Origin: Escherichia coli
GTDB lineage: Bacteria > Pseudomonadota > Gammaproteobacteria > Enterobacterales > Enterobacteriaceae
NCBI RefSeq assembly: GCF_024298765.1
Contig: NZ_CP101218.1
DNA: 2,543 nt
Reading direction: 5' to 3' (one strand)
The notes beneath the pieces are model-generated. The model made no database searches. It worked only from the letters and a program-made list of their open reading frames with translations, and had not been told where the DNA came from. This document shows positions 1 to 2,543 of the stretch, piece by piece. Position numbers and translations under genes: made by a program. Every line of letters begins with the position of its first letter. Within the stretch, counting starts at the first letter, position 1.

Positions 1-133
1 TGTCGAAAAGTTGCAGCGGAAAATGGGACAGGATGTGTATTCGTCATACCGCGAATACATTCGCTTGCATGAGAATACCTCCTGTCAGGGCAAGCCCCGA
101 CACCCCAAACGTGCAAAATGGAGAGTCATTGCG
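1..133 (+). promoter_or_regulatory. Leader region upstream of mobC; candidate operator or oriT-like (bom-like) region
   Basis: Seen in sequence: 14-bp palindrome GCGAAT-ac-ATTCGC (51-64), GAATAC direct repeat (53-58, 73-78), 9-bp palindrome CCTGTCAGG (81-89), and the 12-mer GCCCCGACACCC (94-105), which I recall as also present in the pBR322/ColE1 bom region. SD-like GGAGAG (119-124) lies 9 nt before the ATG at 134. The same frame is open back to position 2, so this region could instead be coding. Confidence 0.25.
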
Positions 134-559
134 ATGACTAAAAATAAACGTAGTGGTTCAGAAGTACGGCAGAGAACTAAGGTTATCACCCTTAGAGTAA
201 ATAACAGAGTCGCAAGCGAAATCAGACGGCGAGCGAAGAACGAAGGACTGACAATTTCAGAATATATCAGGACGGCAAGTTTAAATAATGAAATAAAACA
301 GCGCGTACCTTCCAGGTATTTAGATGAATTAATCCGACTTGGTCGGATGCAGAAGAAATTATTTGATAAGGGAAAGCGGCCGAAGGATAAGGAGTACCTC
401 GAGGTGATGCATAAAATAATTTTACTTTGCGATGAAATGAAAATAGTAACGAAGCGAATTTCTGATGTATATAATGAAATGGATTTAATAAAGGATGAAA
501 TAAAAATAATAAAAAGGATACATAAAGATAAATATCCAGGTTCGGATTTATTCAAATAA
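134..559 (+). CDS. mobC: Ribbon-helix-helix DNA-binding protein, MobC/MbeC-like plasmid mobilization accessory protein (141 aa). The frame is open to the window start, so alternative starts at ATG 23, TTG 11 or off-window cannot be excluded.
   Basis: ORF track frame 11..559. ATG at 134 is preceded by GGAGAG with a 9-nt spacer. The N-terminal basic tail followed by RTKVITLRVNNRVASEIRRRAKNEGLTISEYIRTASLN fits the RHH beta-strand/helix/helix pattern (R-x-I-x-L-R-V ... G-L-T-I-S-E-Y-I-R) typical of MobC-type relaxosome accessory proteins; the C-terminal half is charged and helical. TAA stop at 557-559. Confidence 0.6.
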   Translation: MTKNKRSGSEVRQRTKVITLRVNNRVASEIRRRAKNEGLTISEYIRTASLNNEIKQRVPSRYLDELIRLGRMQKKLFDKGKRPKDKEYLEVMHKIILLCDEMKIVTKRISDVYNEMDLIKDEIKIIKRIHKDKYPGSDLFK

Positions 560-562
560 ACA

Positions 563-590
563 AATAAGGTCTTTTAAAAAAGACCTTATT
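563..590. terminator. Bidirectional intrinsic-terminator-like hairpin between the convergent mobC and repL genes
   Basis: Perfect inverted repeat AATAAGGTCTTTT (563-575) / AAAAGACCTTATT (578-590) with a 2-nt centre, A/T-rich runs on both sides, starting 4 nt after the mobC stop. Confidence 0.6.
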
Positions 591-618
591 TAGATGTGCA
601 TTATTTTATTTCTTCGGT

Positions 619-627
619 TGTTATAAT
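619..627 (+). promoter_or_regulatory. Extended -10 promoter-like element (TGtTATAAT) pointing toward the 3' end of repL (antisense)
   Basis: TG at 619-620 followed by the consensus TATAAT hexamer at 622-627. No good -35, which extended -10 promoters do not require. In AT-rich DNA this could be chance. Confidence 0.25.
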
Positions 628-755
628 AGTTTCACCGTTAGGTGAATATTTAATTCTCATTTCAAACTCTCGACGCTGTTCAATTATTTTTTTCATTCAC
701 CACGAGCAAATAAATTAGGGTTCGCCTGAGCGGACACCGGATAACCCACTTATTC

Positions 756-1307
756 TTAACTAGATTTATCCTCTTGTTTTTCAATTGTATTTTTTCTCTC
801 AATCACAGTTGTAAACGCGATTCTGTCACCATTAAAAACAAAGTTAGGGTTAATGAAATACCTTCCTTGTCGCATTGTTTTTGCAATTATTTTCGCTTTT
901 TCCAATTCATTAAGACCTCGCTTAAAGGTTGCAAGACTTAGTCGTAATGGTTGTTTACTCGCAGAAACTTGGCACTGAAGAAACGCTTCTAAAACTAAGG
1001 TATCCAAATCAACTTCGTCTTTTGAGAGTGCAGAGTTCTGAACGGACCAAACTAAAACACCGAAGGCTTTAATTCCCGCAGAAGATAGCTCAAAAGTTAA
1101 GCCAATATTTGCTGTAAAAAGTTTTACAAACTGTTCGCTATCAACACGTTTATATGTTGTTACGTGAGTACCTTGAACCTCACCTGTGTTCTGATTGACC
1201 AGGATGTTATCATCACGACCTAGACGCGAAAGCCTAACTTGCTTCCCCTTGACAGGTACAACCATTCCTTCTAAAAATGGGTTTTCTTTATAGCGACCGA
1301 AGCTCAT
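756..1307 (-). CDS. repL: Plasmid replication initiator, RepL family (winged-helix DNA-binding), 183 aa
   Basis: ORF track 756..1307 (-). ATG at 1305-1307 on the minus strand is preceded by AGGGGTG (SD-like) with about a 5-nt spacer. The protein carries motifs I recognise from RepL of staphylococcal pSN2-type plasmids and phage P1 RepL: NTGEV near the N-terminus, a central FVKLF...GL segment, and a C-terminal LNELEKAKIIAK...YFINPNFVFNGDRI (compare LKILEEGNIIKRK...LMLNPELLMRGDD). Family assignment is from memory, not a search. Confidence 0.8.
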   Translation of the reverse strand: MSFGRYKENPFLEGMVVPVKGKQVRLSRLGRDDNILVNQNTGEVQGTHVTTYKRVDSEQFVKLFTANIGLTFELSSAGIKAFGVLVWSVQNSALSKDEVDLDTLVLEAFLQCQVSASKQPLRLSLATFKRGLNELEKAKIIAKTMRQGRYFINPNFVFNGDRIAFTTVIERKNTIEKQEDKSS

Positions 1308-1338
1308 TTTTCACCCCTAAAATGATACGCAGAAGCTA

Positions 1339-1367
1339 ATCATAGATGCGGGGTAGCTCAAAAACAA
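1339..1367 (-). promoter_or_regulatory. Candidate sigma70 promoter for repL (-35 TTGTTT, 17-bp spacer, -10 TATGAT), overlapped by an inverted half-iteron
   Basis: On the minus strand: TTGTTT (plus coordinates 1362-1367), 17 nt, TATGAT (plus 1339-1344). Predicted start near 1332 gives a leader of about 25 nt containing the SD. The inverted half-iteron GTAGCTCAA (1353-1361) sits in the spacer. Confidence 0.3.
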
Positions 1368-1412
1368 GCATAATTTTGAGCTACGGTAGCAACAGGATTG
1401 AGCTACCGTAGT
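1353..1412. repeat. Iteron-like repeats upstream of repL: two 15-bp direct repeats 22 bp apart plus an inverted half-copy
   Basis: TTGAGCTACGGTAGC (1376-1390) and TTGAGCTACCGTAGT (1398-1412) match at 13 of 15 positions with a 22-bp period. Each has internal dyad symmetry (GCTAC-N-GTAGC). GTAGCTCAA (1353-1361) is the reverse complement of the first 9 nt. Confidence 0.55.
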
Positions 1413-1476
1413 ACAGATCCTGAAAACACGATCCCCATTTCATGCGGGTTGCGAGAGATTCCCTTCTTAGTTCTTA

Positions 1477-1510
1477 ACGGTAGTGCGTACGTGCTCAATT
1501 TAGCTACCGG
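1477..1510. repeat. Degenerate additional copies of the GCTAC/GTAGC iteron motif
   Basis: ACGGTAGT (1477-1484) and TTAGCTACCGG (1500-1510) match parts of the 15-bp iteron. Between them lies the palindromic core TGCGTACG. Confidence 0.3.
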
Positions 1511-1515
1511 TTCTT

Positions 1516-1573
1516 TTCCGCTTCCTCGTCGATTCGCTCACTACGTTCGGTCACCGACTTGCGGCGAGCGGTA
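1516..1573. other. Primosome-assembly-site-like segment (ssi/pas) resembling the region just downstream of the pMB1/ColE1 origin
   Basis: Window sequence TTCCGCTTCCTCG...CGCTCACT...GTTCGG...TGCGGCGAGCGGTA shares, in the same order and orientation, an 11-13-mer, an 8-mer and a 14-mer with the pBR322/pUC backbone (CTTCCGCTTCCTCGCTCACTGACTCGCTGCGCTCGGTCGTTCGGCTGCGGCGAGCGGTATCAG) as I recall it. Not verified by a search. Confidence 0.4.
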
Positions 1574-1595
1574 ACAACACTCGCGCATTGCCGTC

Positions 1596-1621
1596 GATCC
1601 CGTTTTTGATCTGCGACGATC
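1596..1621. other. Cluster of three GATC (Dam) sites within 26 bp
   Basis: GATC at 1596-1599, 1608-1611 and 1618-1621. The window has 7 GATC in total, none in the first 1415 bp and 6 between 1416 and 1727. Confidence 0.5.
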
Positions 1622-1697
1622 GCGCCGTTTGAAGGCCTCAGGAGCACCAGAACGCGTTTTTGAGGGTCTGTCAGGGGTTTGGGCGCCTTTGGCCCTT

Positions 1698-1710
1698 AAA
1701 CGCGCTCAGA
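1698..1710 (+). repeat. 13-bp direct repeat AAACGCGCTCAGA, copy 1
   Basis: Exact 13-mer also found at 2076-2088, 378 bp away. Confidence 0.9.
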
Positions 1711-1739
1711 AGCTCCCAGACGCGATCAAATGCCAACAG

Positions 1740-1755
1740 ATGCCCGTCAGGGCAT
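1740..1755. repeat. Perfect hairpin ATGCCC-gtca-GGGCAT
   Basis: 6-bp stem (1740-1745 with 1750-1755) and a 4-nt loop. Confidence 0.7.
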
Positions 1756-1932
1756 GGGAGGCGCGAAAAATGCTTACAGAGGCTCTCAGGAGGTCAGGCG
1801 CGCCGATACCCCTAACCAGGGGCTTTCAGGTCGCCAGGAACCGCGCCAGCCTCCTGCAAAGCCGATTAGCACGGAACAGGAAGCTACTCGGTTGGGAGGA
1901 GGTCGTAGACCGTCGGTGTTGCAGCGATGGGG

Positions 1933-1986
1933 GTCTGGGGTACTCCCCAGACGGTTTCCGGTTGCGCTCAAGGCGCTGCCGGAACC
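1933..1986. repeat. Tandem GC-rich stem-loops
   Basis: GTCTGGGG-tact-CCCCAGAC (1933-1952) is a perfect 8-bp stem. It is followed immediately by GGTTTCCGG...GCGC-tcaag-GCGC...CCGGAACC (1953-1986), an 8-bp outer stem with one bulge plus a 4-bp inner stem. Confidence 0.7.
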
Positions 1987-2075
1987 GTGGCGGCTTCGGT
2001 GGTGAAGGGTGAGCGCGTTTCCAAGAGGTTCTCGAGACAACGGCATGACTGAACTGAACAGATGGAACGAGGAAG

Positions 2076-2088
2076 AAACGCGCTCAGA
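2076..2088 (+). repeat. 13-bp direct repeat AAACGCGCTCAGA, copy 2
   Basis: Exact copy of 1698-1710. The related motif CAGACGC occurs at 1717-1723 and 2085-2091. Confidence 0.9.
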
Positions 2089-2110
2089 CGCTTTGTAGCG
2101 CGCTTTTCTG
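2079..2110 (+). terminator. Weak terminator-like hairpin followed by a T-run on the plus strand
   Basis: CGCGCT (2079-2084) pairs with AGCGCG (2097-2102) around a 12-nt loop, followed by CTTTTCTG (2103-2110). The large loop and short stem make this weak. Confidence 0.2.
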
Positions 2111-2225
2111 TGTCAGGCAAGTTTGTTGTGTCTTTTGCCTTTCAGGTTGTCAGCAGCTGGCGGAGCACTGCACGGGGATTAATGCTCCCATTGCCAGGAT
2201 GAAATAAAGATTAGGAGCGACGTTA

Positions 2226-2236
2226 AGTTATATTTT
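2226..2236 (+). repeat. 11-bp direct repeat AGTTATATTTT, copy 1
   Basis: Exact 11-mer repeated at 2269-2279, 43 bp apart, in the AT-rich region immediately right of the GC-rich island. Confidence 0.8.
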
Positions 2237-2268
2237 TAATATATAAACGCGATATCAATAACTCACAT

Positions 2269-2279
2269 AGTTATATTTT
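2269..2279 (+). repeat. 11-bp direct repeat AGTTATATTTT, copy 2
   Basis: Exact copy of 2226-2236. Confidence 0.8.
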
Positions 2280-2389
2280 ATGCATATGCTACCATCTTGC
2301 TCTTTTGCCTCCTGCTCTCTGGACGAATCCCGCATTACCAACAGGCAATGGATTATATAACCAAGAAGATCTAATCTTTATTCCTCTAA

Positions 2390-2398
2390 TAATCCACA
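2390..2398 (+). promoter_or_regulatory. DnaA-box-like 9-mer TAATCCACA
   Basis: 8 of 9 match to the DnaA box consensus TTATCCACA. A single site in AT-rich DNA. Confidence 0.2.
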
Positions 2399-2432
2399 AA
2401 CGACAGACAACAAAGACATCAATTAATTCGGT

Positions 2433-2449
2433 GTTATTTATTAAATAAC
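2433..2449. promoter_or_regulatory. 17-bp perfect AT-rich palindrome GTTATTTA-t-TAAATAAC
   Basis: 8-bp arms with a 1-nt centre, about 40 bp upstream of a possible ATG at 2487. Confidence 0.25.
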
Positions 2450-2543
2450 AAGCAATAATTTTTAAAATCTGTGTAAATAATATTGAATGAAGCATCATTT
2501 TTTTGTATCAGAAATACCAGGTTACGACGCGGTATTTTATTTT

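Follow-up and report, generated by a model that had tools for sequence, protein, structure and literature searches.

A probable RepL replicon carrying a ColE1-like candidate primosome assembly site and an IncI-type oriT–nikA region in a small, cryptic Escherichia coli plasmid

The stretch analyzed here (the window, 2,543 nucleotides of the Escherichia coli contig NZ_CP101218.1) is one full turn of a circular 2,543-bp plasmid. The original prediction had described it as a mosaic plasmid backbone combining a RepL initiator, a possible ColE1-type origin and an orphan mobC, and had left it to be checked whether the source contig is circular, a chromosomal location counting against it. It is a full circle and plasmid-borne, and a chromosomal location is excluded. 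The coding content comes down to two real genes, mobA/nikA and repL, and about 60% of the plasmid is non-coding. This analysis establishes the anatomy of the plasmid, its homologies, the non-coding nature and the distribution of a GC-rich island, and a recombination scar. The arrangement would probably be that of one RepL replicon accompanied by an accessory single-strand priming module and by an IncI-type origin of transfer (oriT) with NikA for mobilization in trans. Two replication modules, as the original prediction had proposed, do not fit what was found, since neither RNAI nor a promoter-like site was found in the island, which lies beside many different replication (Rep) genes and is dispensable for related RepL plasmids.

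The plasmid is an ordinary and common cryptic plasmid of E. coli, already deposited and annotated, and belongs to the group typed as Col(MG828) by PlasmidFinder. Over the full circle it is 99.2% identical to pGF4-G (NZ_CP172224.1; 2,535 bp; E. coli from chicken meat, Switzerland), positions 2-2543 forming a single high-scoring segment pair that spans the junction of a doubled pGF4-G copy. The two differ by 12 substitutions and one gap, an 8-nt indel (TAAACAAA, 557-564), which starts at the mobA stop codon (TAA, 557-559) and ends beside a terminator hairpin. The contig ABXVID010000296.1 (GCA_047837525.1) is also exactly 2,543 bp long and is a circular permutation of the window with 99.9% identity. 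Both records represent the same plasmid, each with the two genes for RepL and MobA, and their non-coding parts carry no annotation. A whole-length match to a described plasmid was therefore obtained, as had been proposed for checking the prediction; a known function for the GC-rich region, which would have spoken against it, is annotated in none of the records seen. Partial matches to the window occur in 532 of 5,426 complete E. coli genomes, nearly all of them located on plasmids, and in 626 records of PLSDB (2024), none of which covers 80% of it.

The initiator gene repL (756-1307, minus strand) encodes a 183-amino-acid protein predicted to be a winged-helix replication initiator, which belongs to one of several RepL clades (clade a). 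The protein matches the Pfam family PF05732 with 30.4 bits (cut-off 20.3; E 3.4e-7), and an identical protein is found on 785 public contigs under the NCBI name RepL. An AlphaFold2 model has a mean pLDDT of 66, rising to 74-90 for residues 60-160, and its best PDB matches, all of them weak (E of at least 0.036), are winged-helix domains; a sequence search of the PDB with RepL found no relative. The His-hydrophobic-His (HUH) motif by which a classical rolling-circle Rep is recognized was not found in the RepL sequence, as the protein has a single histidine.

Upstream of repL lies a region specific to this initiator (1320-1478, minus strand), which is its putative origin and operator. On the minus strand its elements follow one another in a defined order: the conserved stretch TTAAGAACTAAGAAGGGAAT (1458-1477), two direct 14-bp iterons (1398-1411 and 1376-1389), a -35 element TTGTTT (1362-1367), an inverted iteron (1352-1363), a -10 element TATGAT (1339-1344) and the repL start codon. 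The two promoter hexamers were read by eye and score below the cut-off of a stringent promoter scan. The iteron-type repeat GGTAGCTCAA is present in five copies at no more than one mismatch, against 0.16 expected (0 of 200 shuffles), and three of the five fall in the repL promoter region. These repeats, together with the Pfam match above the cut-off, bear out the earlier view of a RepL-family gene with its own iterons. The same architecture is retained upstream of clade-a repL genes in plasmids from unrelated metagenomes, whose RepL proteins are 71-81% identical to that of the window. Moreover, in CP053244 (RepL 73% identical) all three promoter-proximal iterons are altered together, from GTAGCTCAA to GTCTATCAA, as expected for initiator binding sites. 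The repeats upstream of rep thus co-vary with the Rep allele, as far as sequences can tell, which is the mark of an iteron-regulated Rep replicon, and the region 1320-1478 together with repL would most likely be the replicon. Because one iteron sits between the -35 and the -10 elements, RepL probably represses its own promoter.

Beyond this region the base composition changes. The GC content is 0.53-0.65 over approximately 1400-2200, compared with 0.25-0.46 elsewhere in the window, so that the GC-rich island noticed in the original prediction is real. The island proper (1482-2143) consists of a conserved primosome assembly site (pas, 1482-1612), a variable spacer, a conserved core of 308 nt (1696-2003) and a lineage-specific extension to 2143. 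The first of these parts is, by homology and position, a candidate primosome assembly site of the phiX174 type (n'-pas), that is, a single-strand initiation signal (ssi), read on the minus strand and homologous to the pas of ColE1. The window positions 1513-1573 are 81% identical over 62 nt to ColE1 1307-1367, and a family-profile nhmmer search finds the site in ColE1 (E 8e-14) and also the pas of the ColE1-type plasmid pEC27-6 (E 1.8e-17); the resemblance to the pMB1/ColE1 pas claimed from the start was therefore correct. Since Rfam places the ColE1 RNAI at 645-749 on the minus strand, the ColE1 origin lies near 1195 and the matched stretch 100-200 nt downstream of it. We take this stretch to be the factor-Y/PriA effector site of the pBR322/ColE1 literature.

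The heptamer GAAGCGG, which is carried by the phiX174 viral strand and by the ColE1 lagging-strand template, is found on the minus strand of the window at 1518-1524, and for this reason the pas was assigned to that strand, an assignment that depends on this short motif only. Direct similarity between the phiX174 n' site and the pas of the window is at chance level (score 20-22, shuffle mean 20). Homology to a defined pas is nevertheless clear, and PriA-dependent priming would be expected from it. The window and ColE1/pMB1 thus have in common about 100 nt of pas, with GAAGCGG on the same strand. In ColE1/pMB1, however, the site stands beside an RNA-primed origin, whereas in the window it is joined to a Rep-protein origin. 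In ColE1-like replicons an ssi has been described as a standard accessory element.

The spacer (1613-1695) is present or absent depending on the lineage and holds one inverted copy (1648-1659) of the 12-nt motif AAACGCGCTCAG. The GC-rich core (1696-2003) is non-coding and near-invariant across plasmids, and consists of a series of hairpins: ATGCCC-GTCA-GGGCAT, CCCCT-AACC-AGGGG, GTCTGGGG-TACT-CCCCAGAC and CGGTTTCCGG..CCGGAACCG. As single-stranded DNA it folds better than shuffled sequences on both strands (z -2.7 and -3.3). The extension (2004-2143) is common only to pGF4-G, to 2.34-kb plasmids (94.7%) and to an IncX1 plasmid (81%); it contains two further copies of AAACGCGCTCAG and, at 2079-2108, a GC-rich hairpin followed by a T-run. 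In total there are four copies of AAACGCGCTCAG with at most two mismatches, against 0.23 expected, and none of 200 shuffles reaches four. They alternate in orientation and bracket the core: 1648-1659 (minus), 1698-1709 (plus), 2009-2020 (minus) and 2076-2087 (plus). Neither strand of the plasmid has an Xer core site of the dif, cer or psi kind (at least 15 of 22 matches), which is unusual for a small enterobacterial plasmid and is relevant to the idea that an ssi region helps to maintain monomers. A site scan of the plasmid found neither a perfect DnaA box nor the consensus of the integration host factor (IHF).

The distribution of the island is much wider than that of the initiator. The core is present in 754 PLSDB records (571 of them at 80% coverage or more), mostly E. 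coli plasmids of 1.45-1.9 kb. The module stands, in one fixed arrangement in which an oppositely oriented rep is followed by iterons, pas and core, beside five kinds of initiator gene, namely RepL of clades a, b and c (approximately 20% identical to one another), the pKL1-type RepA (below threshold on the RepL model), an Arsenophonus RepL, the pir-type gene of IncX4, and an IncX-like rep gene on a 5.2-kb mini-plasmid. In IncX4 the module is reduced to the pas and the initial 90 nt of the core, and the copy of an IncX1 plasmid is riddled with deletions. On the other hand, pas and core are found in none of 22 loci encoding a clade-a RepL of 71-81% identity. Several of these loci are metagenome assemblies with terminal overlaps, that is, complete circles of about 2.0-5.2 kb; RepL replicons can therefore exist without the module. 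One clade-a RepL plasmid that carries sul2 and lacks pas and core has GC-rich hairpin repeats with CAAGCGAAGCGCG (1923-1935 and 2034-2043) at the corresponding site of the repL-sense strand. The F-G intergenic region of phiX174 contains the same 13 nt at 2355, and these hairpins may represent another ssi at that site.

Among the relatives typed as Col(MG828), pMG828-1 (NC_008486, 1,902 bp), the pKL1-like plasmids of 1.5 kb and the nikA plasmids of 2.31 kb (such as AP026524) have a pas and core 85-90% identical to those of the window, and all of them share its IncI-type oriT. The 2.31-kb group also has nikA and an AT-rich segment in common with it (98-100%). Their initiators, in contrast, are other RepL clades or the pKL1 RepA, with about 20% identity to the RepL of the window, and the plasmids of 1.5-1.9 kb lack the nikA that the window carries; the repL cassette of the window stems from a different lineage. 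About 15 module-bearing plasmids were inspected, and every one has a Rep-protein gene or, in one case, a separate ColE1 replicon. This case is pEC27-6 (NZ_CP060878.1), in which the ColE1 replicon is complete at 927-1854 (RNAI with 80.8 bits, origin, own pas and rop), while the core lies detached at 2548-2902, some 700 bp away. It has no RepL or RepA gene and is nonetheless typed as Col(MG828). AP026524, the pKL1-like plasmids and pMG828-1 likewise receive this type with different initiators. As pEC27-6 and plasmids with such different initiators share both the type and the core, the Col(MG828) marker is, judging from these comparisons, probably the non-coding core itself.

Some database records deserve a comment in this context. 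A scan of genome-assembly contigs for divergent copies of the module returned only contigs of 1.5 kb with about 90% identity. Contigs of approximately 1.5 kb that are 88-92% identical to the core occur in assemblies of Streptomyces, Micromonospora, Flagellimonas, Clostridium, Bradyrhizobium, Mycobacterium, Halobacillus and other organisms; they are almost certainly contamination by an E. coli plasmid of the pKL1/Col(MG828) type. Similarly, the records OR844749.1, OR844798.1 and OX638291.1 (1.4-1.9 kb), deposited as "Escherichia phage," are these small plasmids, with 84-88% identity in pas and core.

Several explanations of the island compete with that of an accessory priming module. One of them, that it encodes a small basic protein (a 91-amino-acid open reading frame, ORF, at 1730-2005, or one of 127 amino acids at 1629-2012), is barely conceivable. 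It is true that the 91-amino-acid frame is open in 11 of 17 relatives and reaches 182 amino acids in pMG828-1, and that the NCBI annotation pipeline (PGAP) occasionally puts a "hypothetical protein" in the island. Nevertheless, the same frame is broken by single-nucleotide indels or stop codons in the other 6, the three codon phases hold similar numbers of variable sites (29/29/32), codon differences are more often nonsynonymous (583) than synonymous (283), the annotated ORFs change place and strand from record to record, and the island ORFs have no Pfam match. With no codon periodicity, an excess of nonsynonymous changes and broken frames, a coding role was rejected. The ColE1-type origin module of the original prediction, in which RNAII and RNAI would direct priming dependent on DNA polymerase I and the plasmid would hold two replicons, is very improbable and already largely refuted. 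The homology to the ColE1 pas is real, the core resides on a genuine ColE1-type plasmid (pEC27-6), and even the scale would fit: in ColE1, 100-200 nt lie between pas and origin and about 550 nt more before the RNAII promoter is reached, so that origin and promoter would fall near 1700 and 2250 of the window, next to an AT-rich stretch. Yet neither RNAI (RF00106) nor any other Rfam family was found on either strand of the window at E ≤ 1, and eight relatives gave no family at the gathering threshold, while the positive controls ColE1 (73.8 bits) and pEC27-6 were detected. No sigma-70-like promoter was found in 1480-2300 by a stringent consensus scan, which also misses the repL hexamers read by eye. 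Searches against ColE1 with nhmmer and blastn align ColE1 1296-1396 only, about 100 nt that correspond to the pas, and beyond it no homology to RNAII, RNAI, rop or the origin was found. None of the features that define an RNA-primed theta replicon of the ColE1 type (RNAI, homology to RNAII and the origin, promoters of RNAII and RNAI) was thus detected in the window. Furthermore, the distance from the core to the end of repA is only about 125 bp in pKL1-type plasmids, which leaves no room for an RNAII promoter, and the separation of core and replicon in pEC27-6 points in the same direction, as does the finding that all the other inspected plasmids have a Rep-protein gene.

It is unlikely that pas and core together are an essential part of the origin (a start site of the leading strand or a site of helicase loading) common to RepL, pKL1-RepA and IncX plasmids, in which case the iterons would chiefly recruit Rep and act in autoregulation. 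The constant order and orientation relative to rep across unrelated initiators, the extreme sequence conservation while the Rep proteins drop to 20% identity, the retention of the module in minimal plasmids of 1.5 kb and the ColE1-like spacing of pas and core would all agree with this. However, the complete circles with a RepL of 71-81% identity and the same iteron architecture do without the module, IncX4 has only the left 90 nt of the core, the IncX1 copy is deletion-ridden, an analogous ssi is dispensable for replication in the pHW126 family, and the vegetative origin (oriV) of pKL1 has been described as lying upstream of repA, with Rep-binding sites, and not in the pas and core region. A role outside replication, the core being a site for stability or multimer control or a selfish passenger spread by recombination, with the AAACGCGCTCAG copies as protein-binding or recombination sites, is rather improbable. 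It would account for the four alternating copies of AAACGCGCTCAG around the core, for the shuffling of the module among many backbones (among them a ColE1 plasmid in which the core is detached from any Rep gene), for the absence of a cer- or dif-like Xer site, which may call for another route of monomer maintenance, and for the multimers that follow loss of the ssi region in pHW126-type plasmids. Against it, the plasmid of the window encodes no recombinase or binding protein, neither target-site duplications nor transposon-like ends were seen, and the fixed orientation beside rep argues for a role linked to replication. More broadly, it is possible, if only tentatively proposed, that pas and core form a hitherto undescribed, self-contained cis-acting DNA element, for example a composite signal for single-strand initiation or helicase loading, or a site of monomer maintenance, which at least five unrelated kinds of Enterobacterales replicon would have exchanged and which would be under strong constraint at the sequence level from a host protein recognizing the AAACGCGCTCAG repeats and the invariant hairpins.

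The explanation preferred here, a RepL replicon with an accessory single-strand priming module, can be described as follows. The winged-helix initiator RepL would bind the iterons found within the 160 bp that precede repL. The island would act as an accessory module without coding function that borders the RepL origin on its upstream side. It would lie on the strand of the repL message, the one that synthesis in the repL direction would displace. A position just upstream of the origin on the displaced strand is usual for the single-strand origin of rolling-circle plasmids. Through the pas, the PriA, DnaB and DnaG proteins of the host would probably prime the displaced or lagging (minus) strand in vegetative replication and, again probably, the strand received by conjugation; the minus strand, which holds the pas, would also be the strand nicked at oriT if the presumed nick consensus is right. 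The core would be an adjunct, which may add priming signals or, like the ssi region of pHW126-type plasmids, help to maintain the plasmid as a monomer. With regard to transfer, a co-resident plasmid of the I-complex would supply NikB and the mating apparatus, and the plasmid of the window would be mobilized. The plasmid in its present form goes back to a nikA/oriT backbone in which one repL allele gave way to a cassette of another repL with its iterons and pas.

The closest published parallel to this arrangement is given by pHW126, pIGRK and pIGMS31 (Rahnella, Klebsiella), compared here by their published description only. Their REP module is laid out as ssi, conserved region, iterons and rep, the same order of parts as in the window, and their autoregulated winged-helix Rep is distantly related to RepL. 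The ssi of these plasmids is non-essential, and its loss results in multimers and instability. There are also differences: the pHW126-type plasmids have four 20-bp iterons, the window two direct and one inverted 14-bp repeats; and nicking activity and mixed rolling-circle and theta intermediates have been shown for the former.

Several observations weigh against the accessory role proposed for the island. Plasmids of only 1.5 kb retain the core, which amounts to one fifth of their DNA, and it contains invariant runs of 40 nt; this retention and invariance suggest something beyond a dispensable helper. Some 125 nt separate the core from the pas, and the core is on the side that corresponds to the origin in ColE1; this geometry is compatible with a start site of DNA synthesis. 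In addition, the pas as single-stranded DNA folds no better than shuffled sequences (z +0.4), and RNAalifold applied to pas and core of 17 members (80-95% identity), on both strands, found almost no double-sided changes in sequences so uniform. The assignment of the pas as an ssi therefore draws on its homology to the site in ColE1 and on where it lies. The metagenomic RepL plasmids that lack the module may live in hosts with substitute signals. Finally, one survey labels Col(MG828) plasmids as "rolling-circle," with no data shown; if the label is right, the module would be a single-strand origin and not a lagging-strand site, which would change the mechanism in detail and not in kind.

The mobilization region of the plasmid occupies the beginning of the window. 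An oriT of the IncI complex (R64 type) is assigned to 1-133 (minus strand) by homology: in IncI-gamma/K1 plasmids, the intergenic DNA that immediately precedes nikA-nikB matches positions 20-106 of the window with about 76% identity over 85 nt. It contains a presumed nick region with the invariant block GGGACAGGATGTG (25-37, reading CACATCCTGTCCC on the minus strand), identified by alignment, and inverted repeats at 36-43/52-59 and 84-91/94-101 (GTCAGGGC..GCCCCGAC). Both GGGACAGGATGTG and GTCAGGGC..CCCCGACACCCC are invariant in the alignment with the IncI-gamma/K1 oriT, the pKL1-like plasmids and pMG828-1. That the block 25-37 is the nick-site consensus, and that the minus strand is the one nicked, we assume by analogy with MOBP oriTs. 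A presumed nick region and an inverted repeat for NikA thus stand directly upstream of nikA, placed and oriented as in an IncI-gamma/K1 plasmid, and by these sequence features the region is an oriT of the IncI complex. The adjoining gene, mobA/nikA (134-559, plus strand; a coding sequence of 426 nt, which PGAP also calls in pGF4-G), encodes a ribbon-helix-helix relaxosome accessory protein of 141 amino acids. This protein matches the NikA-like family of Pfam (PF21983; 60.7 bits, cut-off 27, E 1.5e-16) and the NCBIfam model MobA NF041264 (99.3 bits, cut-off 80, E 1.3e-28), and is 43% identical over 101 amino acids to the NikA of IncI-gamma/K1 plasmids (E 2e-25). No match to MobC was obtained in Pfam or NCBIfam, and an identity as MobC was rejected in favor of the NikA-like and MobA families, which give the best matches. 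The "orphan mobC" of the original prediction thus bore the wrong family name; the lack of a relaxase gene downstream, also noted there, is confirmed, and no relaxase ORF exists anywhere in the window. Downstream of mobA, a hairpin with perfect 14-bp arms and T-runs on both sides (561-592) is likely to be a bidirectional terminator, to judge by its structure.

The lack of a relaxase is shared with other small plasmids. The group of pU302S, NTP16 and pCERC7 has no relaxase either, and in these plasmids, as in R64 and the I-complex, oriT stands directly upstream of nikA with conserved nick-region and inverted-repeat blocks, just as in the window. Mobilization by IncI1 has been shown experimentally for that group: a plasmid with only oriT and nikA was mobilized by IncI1 helpers and not by IncX helpers. 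For this reason, the relaxase-less state represents a known strategy and not an anomaly. The pU302S, NTP16 and pCERC7 group differs from the window in having ColE1-type, RNA-primed replicons, whereas the window is RepL-driven, and the NikA of the window has a C-terminal extension of 40 amino acids. The pKL1-like plasmids and pMG828-1 lack nikA but have the oriT of the window. MOB-suite labels the plasmids with nikA and oriT as "non-mobilizable," and some nikA-less plasmids of 1.5 kb with the same oriT as "mobilizable"; its mobility labels are unreliable for this plasmid group.

Different segments of the plasmid have different nearest relatives. For the positions 2-729 and 2144-2543 these are 2.31-kb plasmids such as AP026524 (98-100% identity), and 1696-2543 are 94.7% identical to a 2.34-kb plasmid. 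By contrast, 730-1695 (with repL, iterons and pas) are only 78-80% identical to their nearest relatives in PLSDB, although 1420-2022 reach 90% with CP055732, and 765-2105 are likewise only 78-80% identical to plasmids of 3.1-3.9 kb. At 604-728 (minus strand), a tblastn search with the RepL of AP026524 finds a frameshifted remnant, the last 42 codons of a different repL allele of clade b, with 30 of 30 and 13 of 14 identical residues in two frames. This remnant is, on the evidence of the alignment, the recombination scar of a replacement of the rep cassette. Because it survives, and because the DNA homology to AP026524 stops at about 730, a repL-iteron-pas cassette replaced another repL allele. 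The predicted origin of the plasmid from at least two lineages is thus upheld by segments with different nearest relatives and by the repL remnant; the plasmid does have a modular history, but one of alleles within a single kind of replicon.

The remaining 400 bp, between the island and oriT, form an AT-rich segment (2144-2543) specific to the NikA/RepL group of E. coli plasmids. It occurs in only 34 PLSDB records, where its annotation consists of two "hypothetical protein" calls, and no supported ORF was found in it. A near-DnaA box (TAATCCACA) is present at 2390, and an 11-nt direct repeat (AGTTATATTTT) at 2226 and 2269.

The biological interest of the plasmid lies in its widespread, near-invariant GC-rich core. 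There are also consequences for the classification of these plasmids. A label of "non-mobilizable" conflicts with an arrangement that has been shown to be mobilized by IncI1 helpers. Likewise, the Col(MG828) type is apparently set on a non-coding accessory segment and not on a replication gene or an origin, and because of this, plasmids with unlike initiators, including a true ColE1 plasmid, receive one and the same "replicon" label.

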